A DNA stretch of 64,000 nt from NCBI GenBank assembly GCA_041389925.1, contig JAWKQX010000006.1:215837-279836 (forward strand). Reading direction: 5' to 3'. This document shows, one piece after another, positions 7,247 through 10,899 of this stretch. Every line of letters begins with the position of its first letter. The first letter of the stretch is position 1. The notes below the pieces were generated by a model. It did no database searches, was not told the origin of the DNA, and was given only the letters and a program-made list of their open reading frames with translations. The position numbers and the translations under genes were made by a program. This DNA is from Kofleriaceae bacterium. Lineage in GTDB: Bacteria > Myxococcota_A > Polyangia > Haliangiales > Haliangiaceae.

Positions 7247-10200
7247 ATGAGCCCGGACACCGCGCTCGAGTATGCGCGGTGGATCCTGCGCGCGGAACGC
7301 GAGGGGCCCGCGGCGCCCTCCGCGCCAACAGCCCTCCGCGCCGACGCGCGCCCGGCGCGCGACGTGCCTGCGCCTGGGGCACCCGCGGCGAGGGAGCCCG
7401 CGCGGCTGCGCGTTGTCGATGACCTTGCATGGAGCGGCGCTCTGGCACGCCGAAGCGGAGCGCACGACGCGCGCGCGCCCGCAGCGGACGCGCGCACCTG
7501 GCCTCGCCGCGGCCGCGCTGACTCCGCGGCCGCTCGCTGGGCCCCGCCGAGCAAGGTCGCGGCGAGGCCAACGCCGGGGGGCCTCGTCGATCCAGAGCAG
7601 GATCGCGGCGAGCACGCGCTGGAGCGCGCTCTCACCCTCGTGCGCGCCGACGGTGAGGGCGCGCCGCTCGCTTCGTCCGTGAGGTTGTCCCTCGACGCCG
7701 AACTGGGCGAGGTGTCTGCGCGCGCCCGTGTCCACACCAGCTCGCTCGCCGCCGAGGCCGCGCAGCTGCTTGGCGCCCAGGCGTTCACCGTTGGTCGCGA
7801 CATCTATTTCGCGGACGGACAGTATGCGCCGGACACCGCTGCGGGCGTTCGGTTGCTTCGGCATGAGCTCACCCACGTCGCCCAGCACGAGCGTGGCGAG
7901 CTCGCCGCGCACGGGGACGCCAAGGTGCTCGCGCCGTCCAGCGCGCAGGAGGCCGAGGCTCACGCCGCCGAGCACCGCGCTCCCGGCGTCGGCGCCTCCA
8001 CGGCCATCGCCTCCCCCGCAGGAGCCAAGAACGCTCCGTTCCTGGCGCGGCCCACAGACGACCTCTTCTCCGCCGATGGGCGCACCAGCGCGATCACCAG
8101 CACCGCGATCGCTCGCAAGCCCGGGGACGCGCCTACCGCCATCCCTGCCGGCGGTGTCAACATCAACAAGGTCGGCGTGGTAGCTTGGGACGGCGCGCCA
8201 GCGCTGCGCCTGCGGTCGGCGCGCAGCACCGGCAGCAAGATCCTCGCCGAGCTGCTCTTCAACAGCCGCTTGCAGGTCATCAAGGAGTTCCCCGGCCAGT
8301 GGTACTTTGTCTCGACGCAGTCGGGGCTCCTGGGCTACGTCTTCAAGGCGCACGTCAAGACCAACCTGCCCGAGCCCGGTGCCAAGCTGCACAAGGTCAA
8401 GGCTGGCCGGTCCGGCTTCGCGATCGCCATCGCCGAGCAGCACTATCGCGCGCACGCCGACGACTGGGGGCAAGATCTGCGCTTCTACGTCAATGTGCTC
8501 GCCTGGGTGAACAAGCGCCCCGTGCCGGACTCGACGGCTGGATGGAAGCGCCTCCAGTTCCGCGCGGGCGAGCTGATCTGGATCCCGACGCCGTCCTTCG
8601 CGCGCAGCCTGCGCGGCGTCGTCAACTCGGGCTCGGTGTCGTACAACGCGCTCGACGCGGTCGGCCTCGCCGGCTTCCTCGAGCGGACCGGCGAGCTCTG
8701 GGACGACGTGCGCGCGGCGATCTCGCTCTCGACCAAGTATCTACCCGCCGCCATCCGCGCCCACGTCGAAGAGTCGCTCTGGTCGATCCTGGAGGCGATG
8801 GCCTTGCTGCTCGTCGGCGCCGCAGCGGTGCTGGCGATCTCTACGGCGATCGGCGCCGCGCTCGGCGCGCTGGCCGGCGGCGCGGGCGCTGCGCCGGGCG
8901 CGGCCGCCGGCTTCGAGGTCGGCCTGGTGCTGCTCAACTGGCTCGGCCTCGGCTTCCTCATCGTCTGGCTCGGGCAGTCGTTGGTCAAGGTGGGCGGCGC
9001 CTTCGGCACGTTCCTCGGCCAGATCTGGGGTGCTCGTGGTGACGCCGCCAAGGTTGACCTGGCCGCCCGCCAGTTCGCCGAGGCGATCGGAACGCTGTGC
9101 GGCGTGCTCATCGAGGCGCTGGTGATGTGGGCCGCCTCCATCGGCGTGGGCCGCGCCATGGGCGTCCTCCGCGGCACGCGCTTCGGCAAGGGGTTCCAGA
9201 GCACGGCCGCCGGCGAGTGGCTGACGCGTCGGGTCGACGCGGTCAAGAGCGGAGACGCCGCGCTGCCCACGCCGAAGGAGGCGTGGAACAAGTTCTCCTG
9301 GAATCGCACCCCGACCGCGAAGCGCCTGCTCGAGCTCTTCGGGGCGACGGCGAGCGAGCACTTCCGCCCGATCGAGCCGAACAAGGTGAGCGTCCATGGT
9401 GAGCTCAAGATCTCGGCGCGCGCGCTGGACGCGCTGTCCGACGCAGATCTGGTGAAGCTCGTCGAGCTCTGCAAGAACAAGGGGCCCGCGGAGGCCTATG
9501 CCTACTTCGAGTCCTCCAGCACCAACGGCGGCAAGCCCGGCGCTCGCCTGCGCTTCGAGTCGCGCCTGCAGGAACGCGCGCAGCAGGTGGTGGACGGGAT
9601 CCGTGAGAGCCTGGGCATCAAGCCTGGCGACGCCCGCGCCAAGCTGCTGGAGAACCTGAGCGAAGGTGACAAGCTCCGCCTCTGGGATCTGTTCAACGAG
9701 CAAGCGTTCAAGAACGCCCAGCTCCGCAAGCAAGCCGCCGAGTGGGCCCTTGGCAAGAAGCCCAAGACCGTGCGAGAGCTGGTAGCGCAGATGCAGTTCT
9801 TCGAGGCCGAGGTGAGCAGGCAGGGAGAGTTGCTCACCGAGCGCGTGAGAGAAGAAAATGCGCGACTCCTACGAGACGCAGCGGACGCCAAGGGCGGTGA
9901 TCTGAGCCCTGTGGAGCAGCGAAACATTACGCGTGAAGTGACGGAGAGGATCCTGGGCAAGGCGCTCGATGCCATTGGTACGGCTGCGGAGAAGGCGGCC
10001 CGAACAAAAGCGCTAGGCGATCTCAACCAGAGTTCTACGGCGTCGGTGGATGCGGCCTGGAGGAGCAACCTCACGGCACAGACTGGCGCCAACGCGCCGC
10101 GGCCGATTCGCCTCGGGGCTCATGATGATGCAACGCTTCCGGCAAAGGTTCAGGAGGCTGGCGATCGCCTCACGTTTGGTAGCGATGCCGATGGCGCGTA

Positions 10201-10426
10201 TCACGCGCACAAGCACATCAGGGAGCTTGGGAAGGCGACCGATGGAACCAACGAGATGTCTGTCTACCTGACTGAAGCTCGTGGTCTTTTGCGCTCTCGC
10301 CCAGGAACGGTGCGCCACAATCCGAACGGCTCACGAAGCGTGGTGGTCGAGGCAGCCGGCAAGCGGGCGATCGTGCATGTTAGTGTCGAGGGTGACGCGA
10401 CGATCGCTACTTTTGGAGCACAATGA
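7247..10426 (+). CDS. polymorphic toxin-like protein with a DUF4157 (zincin-like, HExxH) domain, bacterial SH3-like region, hydrophobic/TM-rich central region and C-terminal toxin module
   Basis: APLASSVRLSLDAELGEVSARARVHTSS...AFTVGRDIYFADGQY...LLRHELTHVAQH is a canonical DUF4157 signature. The Gly/Ala-rich TM block is at about 8800-9200. The stop overlaps the start of the downstream small gene (ATGA). The start is uncertain: ATG 7247, GTG 7640 or the ORF start at 7025 are all possible. Confidence 0.65.
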   Translation: MSPDTALEYARWILRAEREGPAAPSAPTALRADARPARDVPAPGAPAAREPARLRVVDDLAWSGALARRSGAHDARAPAADARTWPRRGRADSAAARWAPPSKVAARPTPGGLVDPEQDRGEHALERALTLVRADGEGAPLASSVRLSLDAELGEVSARARVHTSSLAAEAAQLLGAQAFTVGRDIYFADGQYAPDTAAGVRLLRHELTHVAQHERGELAAHGDAKVLAPSSAQEAEAHAAEHRAPGVGASTAIASPAGAKNAPFLARPTDDLFSADGRTSAITSTAIARKPGDAPTAIPAGGVNINKVGVVAWDGAPALRLRSARSTGSKILAELLFNSRLQVIKEFPGQWYFVSTQSGLLGYVFKAHVKTNLPEPGAKLHKVKAGRSGFAIAIAEQHYRAHADDWGQDLRFYVNVLAWVNKRPVPDSTAGWKRLQFRAGELIWIPTPSFARSLRGVVNSGSVSYNALDAVGLAGFLERTGELWDDVRAAISLSTKYLPAAIRAHVEESLWSILEAMALLLVGAAAVLAISTAIGAALGALAGGAGAAPGAAAGFEVGLVLLNWLGLGFLIVWLGQSLVKVGGAFGTFLGQIWGARGDAAKVDLAARQFAEAIGTLCGVLIEALVMWAASIGVGRAMGVLRGTRFGKGFQSTAAGEWLTRRVDAVKSGDAALPTPKEAWNKFSWNRTPTAKRLLELFGATASEHFRPIEPNKVSVHGELKISARALDALSDADLVKLVELCKNKGPAEAYAYFESSSTNGGKPGARLRFESRLQERAQQVVDGIRESLGIKPGDARAKLLENLSEGDKLRLWDLFNEQAFKNAQLRKQAAEWALGKKPKTVRELVAQMQFFEAEVSRQGELLTERVREENARLLRDAADAKGGDLSPVEQRNITREVTERILGKALDAIGTAAEKAARTKALGDLNQSSTASVDAAWRSNLTAQTGANAPRPIRLGAHDDATLPAKVQEAGDRLTFGSDADGAYHAHKHIRELGKATDGTNEMSVYLTEARGLLRSRPGTVRHNPNGSRSVVVEAAGKRAIVHVSVEGDATIATFGAQ

Positions 10427-10899
10427 GCAGCCTTGACGAGATCTTGGATGGCGCGGCCGGAGCGCTCGGTGCCGCGAACTCCGAGGATGCAGCTGAAAGA
10501 CTGCTGCACATGAATCACTTCATGTTGGCCTTCGAGAGACTCAGTCAGCTGAACCTCGATCGACTCGACGCGCTCCCTGCGGTTCGGACGTGGGCGACCA
10601 AGAACGCACGGCCTCTTATGGCCGCGCGTCGAGCCCTCGAGGACTGGAGTCTGGAGTCCGGACGGCTGTTCTATGGGGGTGGCGAGGAAGAGGCGGAGCG
10701 CGCGCTAGAGCGACGCTCGAGGTTCCAGGTTGTTTGCGAGGTATTTCGCGCGACAGACGCGGGGGAATGGCTTCAGGCGTTTGCTTCCGATGACGTCGAT
10801 CAAGACTACCGGGAGCAAGCCGCGCAGTGTGCCCTGGATCCTCCGGACTGGGTCCCGCGCAGCCACACCTGGTGGTACTGGCGCGAGGGCCGGCAGTAG
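10423..10899 (+). CDS. putative cognate immunity protein of the DUF4157 toxin
   Basis: 158-aa acidic ORF whose ATG overlaps the toxin stop (caATGAgc). Context only; no family was recognised. Confidence 0.5.
   Translation: MSSLDEILDGAAGALGAANSEDAAERLLHMNHFMLAFERLSQLNLDRLDALPAVRTWATKNARPLMAARRALEDWSLESGRLFYGGGEEEAERALERRSRFQVVCEVFRATDAGEWLQAFASDDVDQDYREQAAQCALDPPDWVPRSHTWWYWREGRQ

Follow-up and report, generated by a model that had tools for sequence, protein, structure and literature searches.

What does the unannotated C-terminus of a DUF4157-headed protein do, and what is the small acidic open reading frame (ORF) that overlaps its stop codon? These questions are raised by a gene pair in the 64-kb stretch of DNA analysed here (the window), which has a base composition of about 70% GC and belongs to a metagenome-assembled genome (MAG) of Kofleriaceae (Myxococcota). 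The original prediction had read the pair as a polymorphic toxin with an immunity gene and had left the C-terminal toxin domain unrecognised. Our analysis revealed that the pair is a new toxin and immunity family of an already known type of system, for which we infer ribonuclease (RNase) activity and an export route from sequence and model. The best explanation of the C-terminal domain is that it forms, at the sequence level, a new colicin-like BECR RNase family accompanied by a new cognate immunity family, new being meant relative to Pfam, NCBIfam and PDB; the BECR-Tox1-5 profiles of a 2026 preprint (bioRxiv 10.64898/2026.08.28.747851) lie outside this comparison.

The toxin ORF was numbered from the GTG that opens its maximal reading frame (Table 1), and TTG 7109, TTG 7148 and ATG 7247 are further candidate starts. 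NCBI places the start at TTG 7148 (MEZ4363305.1, 1092 aa, "DUF4157 domain-containing protein", identical to our ORF from residue 42) and a Logan assembly call at TTG 7109 (1105 aa). The ATG 7247 proposed originally is one of several possible starts, and the choice among them leaves the other results unaffected. GC content at third codon positions (GC3) is 0.81-0.98 across most of the ORF, which is the coding signature of this genome and, together with the Pfam domains, indicates a real coding gene. Look-up of the protein encoded downstream recovered the locus in two Logan assemblies.

The downstream ORF, acidic as predicted and 158 aa long, overlaps the toxin stop by 4 nt in an ATGA junction (..CAATGAGC.., GCA CAA TGA GC). 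Its product ends in a WVPRSHTWWxWR motif and yielded no signal peptide, Pfam domain or PDB relative. At the loci of the close toxin homologues (n=6), a gene of 152-159 aa was found at or inside the toxin stop, except in the frameshifted locus L004, where it lies about 0.5 kb beyond the remnant toxin ORF instead; the six encoded proteins are 35-68% identical to the window ORF and have the WVPRSHTWWxWR motif in common. A hidden Markov model constructed from these 152-159-aa proteins was then run on six-frame translations of all fetched loci, eight of which come from GTDB genomes (in every case MAGs of Kofleriaceae, Haliangiales or Myxococcales). An immunity homologue was detected directly 3′ of the toxin domain in 15/15 loci with downstream DNA. 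Homologues are also encoded at two further, distant loci, whose toxin domains are about 35% identical; they were recognised at E 1e-16 and 1e-7 and have ..AHVWWH and ..SHWWWW as their last residues. This recurrence behind the toxin domain identifies the 158-aa ORF as an immunity gene by genomic criteria, and the ORF is clearly conserved with the toxin, lack of such conservation having been named with the original prediction as part of what would refute it. The family is small (19 clusters). We consider it very probable, judging from these sequences, that the toxin and the 158-aa ORF form a toxin-immunity pair. The acidity of the immunity protein and its lack of a signal peptide point to protection in the cytoplasm, which fits a protein that would bind and restrain a basic enzyme acting on nucleic acid.

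Residues ~724-1133 of the toxin, including the AYHAHKH motif at 1058-1064, gave no match in Pfam, in NCBIfam or among PDB sequences, in agreement with the earlier statement that the C-terminal domain was unrecognised. Against Pfam and NCBIfam, neither the immunity protein nor the last 410 and last 110 aa of the toxin rose above noise (for example DUF6415, E 0.16; HEAT_2, E 1.4), and when module, toxin domain and immunity protein were compared with PDB, as single sequences and as profiles, no match fell below E 0.1. A word-indexed search retrieved six close homologues (47-86% identity) in which a block of ~380 aa (aa 753-1133) is kept and the sequence N-terminal of it differs. Two homologues (P0001, P0004) have DUF4157, SH3 and DUF6861 as in the window protein, two (P0002, P0003) have a different hydrophobic region behind a LysM-like stretch, with an HExxH region as well in the full-length form P0008, and two (P0005, P0006) have an unrelated N-terminus. 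Occurrence of one C-terminal module on at least three N-terminal architectures among close relatives, and on many more among distant ones, supports the proposed reading of the protein as a DUF4157-headed polymorphic toxin.

Exhaustive profile search with the six-sequence module alignment as query revealed at least 192 clusters (50% identity) at E<=1e-3, 106 of them at E<=1e-10. In a re-scan of 154 retrieved proteins (~100 to 7107 aa), 126 gave matches that extend to the last profile position, and 117 of these matches also stop no more than 15 aa short of the C-terminus of their protein. The whole block is present in 65 of the re-scanned proteins, only its last 100-150 aa in 23 (some of them internal in Sorangium proteins of 5000-7100 aa, some with PolyA_pol and ubiquitin-hydrolase domains) and only its first ~200 aa in 11, including P0030. 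These partial matches divide the block into a pre-toxin domain, a linker and a toxin domain of 114 aa (Table 1), so that the distinct C-terminal module is real, as supposed, and extends well beyond the last 150 aa. DUF4157 stands at the N-terminus of 13/22 long relatives scanned; N-terminal partners among the relatives are DUF4157, PolyA_pol with ubiquitin C-terminal hydrolase, or no known domain. Myxococcota account for every close relative recovered from an assembled genome and for the few distantly related members with a named organism.

The helical pre-toxin domain, with the motifs ..KGPxxAYxYFExSSxxxKPGxRLRFxSR..RLWDLFNE..RELVAQMQFFEAEV, has no Pfam or PDB match, is better conserved than the toxin domain and precedes other C-termini in some proteins. 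In the metagenomic protein P0030 (2180 aa), the last ~350 aa comprise the pre-toxin domain followed by a different tail, in which a PD-(D/E)xK-like D..EAK motif (..VYIVIEAKGGGSG..) was read by eye. This second tail suggests, on sequence grounds, that the pre-toxin domain may be an adaptor common to more than one nuclease-type tip. Elsewhere in the family, the ~120-aa toxin domain is internal in giant proteins of Sorangium spp. (P0090, P0103 and P0118, 5062-7107 aa), and in P0097, P0137 and P0119 it occurs with a poly(A) polymerase-type nucleotidyltransferase head, joined in P0097 and P0137 by a ubiquitin C-terminal hydrolase domain. Both sets look like multi-effector proteins, possibly with eukaryotes as target.

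Composition and identity both change at the end of the pre-toxin domain. GC3 is 0.93-0.98 from the SH3 domain to the start of the pre-toxin domain and 0.90 within it, drops to 0.65 in the linker, 0.61 in the toxin domain and 0.72 in the immunity gene, and returns to 0.94 in the next gene downstream; the drop sets in near aa 940 (nt 9845), just past the most conserved stretch ..VRELVAQMQFFEAEV. Relative to loci L001 and L004, the latter representing the closest relative, identity is 85-88% in the pre-toxin domain, 56% in the linker (L001 only, with no match in L004), 56-64% in the toxin domain and 58-68% in the immunity protein, which tracks the toxin domain. Coincidence of the GC3 break with the mosaic identity suggests that linker, toxin domain and immunity gene may be swapped as a unit behind a constant pre-toxin handle. 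Cassette exchange in CdiA occurs after the VENN motif, and the break after ..RELVAQMQFFEAEV at the pre-toxin end marks a possible swap point for toxin and immunity in an analogous manner.

Rearranged copies of these elements were found at related loci. Tandem immunity genes occur in L013 (11170-12127) and L020 (12837-13792), and L016 (12389-13387) contains a second, partial tip/immunity unit. L001 (3167-5186) carries two extra immunity copies and a displaced toxin-tip fragment (profile positions 37-114), in the order of a broken immunity N-terminus, the last 78 toxin-domain residues and another immunity gene. In L004 and L011, from the Myxococcales MAG JADJJK010000009.1 (L004, 9311-12285), the toxin gene is broken up, with SH3, DUF6861 and tip in pieces across three different frames, and the immunity gene is intact; this toxin is probably a pseudogene, assembly errors being possible, and the locus may be an immunity-only remnant. 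In the window, no orphan cassette or tandem immunity gene follows the pair.

These rearrangements also bear on a different role for the pair, that of an intracellular toxin-antitoxin (TA) or anti-phage (abortive infection) module, in which infection or stress would release the RNase tip inside the producer and the 158-aa protein would be the antitoxin. Such a role would agree with the want of secretion-system genes in the window and related contexts and with the defence and mobile genes upstream (GmrSD_N, HipA, the methylase fragment and IS3 OrfA). However, interbacterial polymorphic toxins are characteristically marked by orphan toxin-fragment/immunity cassettes and by immunity genes in tandem, the toxin domain ends proteins of 1000-7000 aa behind trafficking-type domains (DUF4157, DUF6861) rather than forming a small stand-alone toxin, and the protector gene lies downstream and matches no DNA-binding domain. 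We consider an intracellular module very improbable, and an exported toxin is preferred.

As to what this toxin would do, structure prediction with AlphaFold2 was informative for the tip. A model of the 381-aa module from six sequences reached a mean predicted local distance difference test score (pLDDT) of 67.6, was confident for the last 100 aa only and was uninformative in Foldseek, so the last 114 aa were modelled alone with a 79-sequence alignment (A4). The resulting model had a pLDDT of 97.3 and a predicted template modelling (TM) score of 0.90, and consists of a short helix followed by helices H35-49 and H58-72 and strands E76-79, E85-91, E94-100 and E105-113. Helices followed by four strands reproduce the topology (pre-alpha + alpha + beta1-beta4, strands antiparallel) by which a 2026 classification recognises the colicin-like group of BECR ribonucleases, and on the strength of this model a colicin-like BECR fold is likely. 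Solved structures listed with the tip fold are, in order of rank with the listed value, CdiA-CT of E. coli O32:H37 (8ey4, 7.0), colicin D (5znm, 6.7), CdiA-CT of P. aeruginosa (6d7y, 6.4), CdiA-CT of K. pneumoniae 342 (6cp9, 6.3), colicin D (1tfk, 5.9), a Salmonella TA toxin (7vd7, 5.7) and CdiA-CT of NC101 (5i4q, 5.3).

Conservation among the 79 sequences, none of which has a Pfam match in this domain, singles out Y1059 (96%), H1060 (99%), K1063 (92%), H1064 (99%), E1067 (84%), Y1081 (99%), G1102 (91%) and T1129 (90% Thr, 10% Ser). The residues from Y1059 to E1067 in this list lie on the pre-alpha helix (model residues 35-49) and T1129 lies on the last strand. Colicin-like enzymes carry a catalytic His on the pre-alpha helix, often with a Lys just before it, and conserved residues on beta4; by conservation and secondary-structure position, K1063-H1064 and T1129 correspond to this signature. 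A review of contact-dependent growth inhibition (CDI) describes the active sites of the Kp342 and EC3006 tRNases as K/Y/H/R/T sets. From the model, RNase activity is somewhat favoured for the toxin domain, most likely that of a metal-independent enzyme acting on tRNA. PT6, a published DUF4157-fused toxin, was considered as the same domain and rejected, as it acts in the periplasm, its published text mentions no immunity protein and its taxonomic spread differs.

The N-terminal two thirds of the protein largely bear out the original description: the DUF4157 signature is that of Pfam eCIS_core/DUF4157, with its HExxH motif at H280-E281-L-T-H284, the SH3-like segment is a bacterial SH3_3 domain, and the Gly/Ala-rich block coincides with DUF6861 (99.4 bits against a curated cut-off of 28), with hydrophobic segments at 584-621, 627-655 and 684-710 by hydropathy scan. 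DUF6861 is described as a glycine-zipper membrane domain N-terminal to Ntox15, TNT, EndoU and CdiA tRNase domains, and might here suit a role in membrane passage. In front of DUF4157, the N-terminus yielded no signal peptide, and aa 42-213 contain 70% disorder-promoting residues, a proxy based on composition only. By analogy, this region resembles the disordered loading region of DUF4157 cargo proteins of extracellular contractile injection systems (eCIS), such as Cgo1 and Cgo2.

DUF4157 is the strongest marker known for eCIS cargo: its odds ratio at eCIS loci is 2614, it occurs in 36% of known eCIS toxins compared with 0.06% of other genes, and in most cases it precedes a toxin domain, from which a very long linker often separates it. 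A further 88% figure concerns position, this being the share of known eCIS toxins that lie within ten genes of an eCIS operon. The window protein has the DUF4157 layout behind an N-terminal leader; an eCIS operon within about ten genes was found neither in the window nor in the annotated related contexts. Given this discrepancy in the window, eCIS delivery, argued by analogy, is put forward only as a tentative possibility, the one tie to eCIS being the DUF4157 marker.

Taken as a whole, we moderately favour an exported polymorphic toxin with a colicin-like BECR RNase tip and a binding immunity protein. The disordered N-terminus and DUF4157 would mark the toxin as cargo of the eCIS-loaded kind, the SH3 domain and LysM-like stretch followed by DUF6861 would probably aid targeting or membrane passage, and the helical pre-toxin domain would serve as a constant handle for the variable linker and the 114-aa tip. 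In the target, the tip would cut RNA, most likely tRNA, without a metal, using His1064 (after Lys1063), His1060, Tyr1059/Tyr1081 and Thr1129. In the producer, translational coupling through the ATGA overlap would supply the immunity protein, which would bind the RNase domain in the cytoplasm and protect the cell. Several results weigh against this explanation. Foldseek comparison of the clean tip model with PDB gave no significant match (best RelE, E 0.12, TM 0.30-0.42), and the tip has no sequence link to a known RNase family in Pfam, NCBIfam or PDB, including Colicin_D, CdiA_C_tRNase, the Ntox families, DUF4258 and others. Among the GC3-supported ORFs of the window, which covers 64 kb of a 544-kb contig (7 kb upstream and 53 kb downstream of the pair), none matched a sheath, tube, baseplate, spike or DUF4255 family, and no eCIS or T6SS (type VI secretion system) genes were seen in about ten related contexts with precomputed Pfam annotation. 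The toxin also contains three or four hydrophobic helices, which sit uneasily with passage through an eCIS tube.

The first two of these results leave some room for an exported toxin with immunity whose tip is not an RNase and has another activity or target (DNA, nucleotide or protein), or whose main toxicity is membrane damage by DUF6861. The lack of sequence homology to characterised RNases and of a significant Foldseek match would suit this alternative, as would the pre-toxin domain, which is functionally uncharacterised and more conserved than the tip; moreover, a paper on a CDI ionophore indicates that glycine-zipper domains can be ionophoric toxins themselves. Against this alternative stand the immunity gene, which varies together with the C-terminal domain and is present behind it also in proteins lacking DUF6861 (P0002, P0005, P0006), and the position of DUF6861 before many toxin domains unrelated to one another, as would fit a function in delivery. 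This alternative appears unlikely, and the colicin-like RNase tip is retained.

The remaining results concern the route. T6SS, myxobacterial outer-membrane exchange or lysis-dependent release with glycine-zipper self-translocation could each replace eCIS: the gene is far from contractile-system genes in every context seen, DUF4157 has also been reported in T6SS effectors, and AlgoCIS loading requires the disordered N-terminus and can dispense with DUF4157. Set against these routes, four Pfam scans listing all families detected no PAAR, VgrG, Hcp, MIX or FIX in the toxin or window ORFs and no lipoprotein signal, the specificity of DUF4157 for eCIS is very high, the disordered N-terminus, DUF4157 and variable C-terminus reproduce the layout of Cgo1 and Cgo2, and the absence of eCIS genes is known for the 64 kb only. 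Delivery by one of these other routes is rather doubtful. Since the family was never seen beside a contractile injection system and always has its own pre-toxin domain, here together with a glycine zipper, it is conceivable, if unlikely, that it stands for a way in which DUF4157-headed toxins of Myxococcota are exported, or translocate themselves, independently of eCIS; the pre-toxin domain would then be no passive handle but a new device for entry or translocation, or a second enzyme. An AAA ATPase at 53812-56127 was considered as an Afp15-like eCIS gene and rejected, there being no sheath, tube or baseplate family around it.

Comparison with known systems places the pair among several of them. 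eCIS-associated toxins (EATs) resemble the window protein in their disordered N-terminus, DUF4157 with HExxH, long linker and variable C-terminal effector; LysM-type domains are present in some EATs, and immunity genes accompany some. Unlike them, the window protein has no eCIS operon within 64 kb and possesses DUF6861, a conserved pre-toxin domain and an unannotated toxin family. BECR-fold CdiA-CT tRNases with CdiI (6CP9, 6D7Y, 8EY4, 5I4Q) show no detectable sequence similarity to the tip and have an unrelated immunity family; unlike CdiA, the window toxin lacks CdiB/two-partner secretion, filamentous haemagglutinin repeats and VENN, and its delivery is marked by DUF4157, not by type V secretion. 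Colicin D/ImmD (5ZNM, 1TFK) shares with the window pair the colicin-like BECR topology (predicted for the tip), a Lys-then-His on the pre-alpha helix, an acidic immunity protein and a separate domain before the RNase, the central domain in colicin D. Unlike colicin D, the window toxin has no Pfam Colicin_D match, is chromosomal and myxobacterial, and comes without receptor-binding and translocation domains or a lysis gene.

Other DUF6861-containing toxins likewise have the glycine-zipper domain upstream of a nuclease-type toxin domain; the domain is N-terminal in its description, whereas in the window protein it is internal, after DUF4157 and SH3, and precedes a toxin family that is not among its listed partners. 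In the type II TA systems of RelE, BrnT and MqsR, the RNase is small and stands alone, and the antitoxin encoded upstream of it binds DNA, whereas the window tip ends a protein of 1100 aa and has its protector gene downstream. The pair extends a known paradigm and does not overturn current understanding. In a published eCIS-toxin prediction set, 983/1130 DUF4157 proteins have no other annotated domain, and for one such unannotated C-terminus the present analysis supplies a predicted fold, proposes H1060, K1063, H1064 and T1129 as active-site residues and adds a cognate immunity family; the consistent absence of nearby injection-system genes sharpens the question of how DUF4157 toxins leave the cell when their genes lie apart from eCIS loci.

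Table 1. Features of the toxin-immunity locus and of the DNA upstream of it (nucleotide positions in the window; residues counted from GTG 7025)
Feature	Position	Strand	Residues	Evidence or remark
IS3-type OrfA, lone	699-1124	-		HTH_Tnp_1, E 2e-8; ~6 kb upstream; only transposase-like ORF
GmrSD_N (DUF262-type) protein	1302-2945	+		
HipA kinase toxin	2945-4198	+		
Fe-alcohol dehydrogenase				Upstream of the toxin
Small ORF	5683-5943	-		No family match
C5 cytosine methylase, C-terminal remnant	~6011-6900	-		Profile positions 274-322 of 324 matched
Toxin gene, maximal ORF	7025-10426	+	1133 codons from GTG	Stop 10424-10426; Pfam domains and GC3
Ala/Arg/Pro-rich N-terminal region	7148-7663	+	42-213	Composition
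DUF4157/eCIS_core zincin-like domain	7664-7897	+	214-291	PF13699, E 5.5e-23, above curated cut-off
SH3_3, bacterial	8201-8359	+	393-445	PF08239, E 9.4e-9
DUF6861 glycine-zipper membrane domain	8699-9229	+	559-735	PF21724, E 2.4e-28
Helical pre-toxin domain, conserved	9293-9844	+	757-940	Homologue alignment
Variable helical linker	9845-10081	+	941-1019	Alignment; start of low-GC3 cassette
Compositionally distinct cassette (linker, toxin domain, immunity gene), ~1.05 kb	9845-10899	+		GC3, mosaic identity
C-terminal toxin domain, 114 aa	10082-10423	+	1020-1133	Predicted colicin-like BECR fold
Putative immunity gene	10423-10899	+	158 aa	Acidic, pI 4.75; MEZ4363306.1, annotated hypothetical

The neighbourhood upstream of the pair (Table 1) is rich in mobile and defence genes. 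The pair had been placed inside an island bounded by insertion sequences (IS), and this part of the prediction was not borne out: the lone IS3 OrfA has no second IS to match it among the GC3-supported ORFs scanned downstream, and no inverted or direct repeats flank the pair. Immediately behind the immunity gene, 11027-13547 (+) encodes a 696-aa protein, assigned to DUF8224 by precomputed Pfam matches (none in the local Pfam copy), and a small ORF of 118 aa; their native GC3 of 0.94 places both outside the foreign cassette. The downstream side also has genes for a sigma-like protein and for a Ser/Thr kinase carrying TPR repeats.

An apparent second polymorphic toxin locus is present at 18005-23782 (-). 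Its gene of ~720 aa (21575-23782, -) encodes an N-terminal hydrophobic segment, long helices and a C-terminal PD-(D/E)xK-like motif (..DCVLVKGKQDCWVLEFKP..) and has no Pfam match. It is followed on the same strand by three paralogous genes of ~279 aa (20739-21578, 19134-19976 and 18018-18848) whose 3′ 275 nt are 86-96% identical, and copies of the toxin 3′ fragment with 97-98% identity (repeats D1-D3, D5 and D6) lie between them. The paralogues and interspersed fragments suggest that this region may be an immunity array with orphan toxin remnants. Farther downstream, at 36473-45094 (+), a TPR-rich ORF of ~2870 codons follows a TonB-dependent-receptor-like outer-membrane protein and appears unrelated to the toxin pair.

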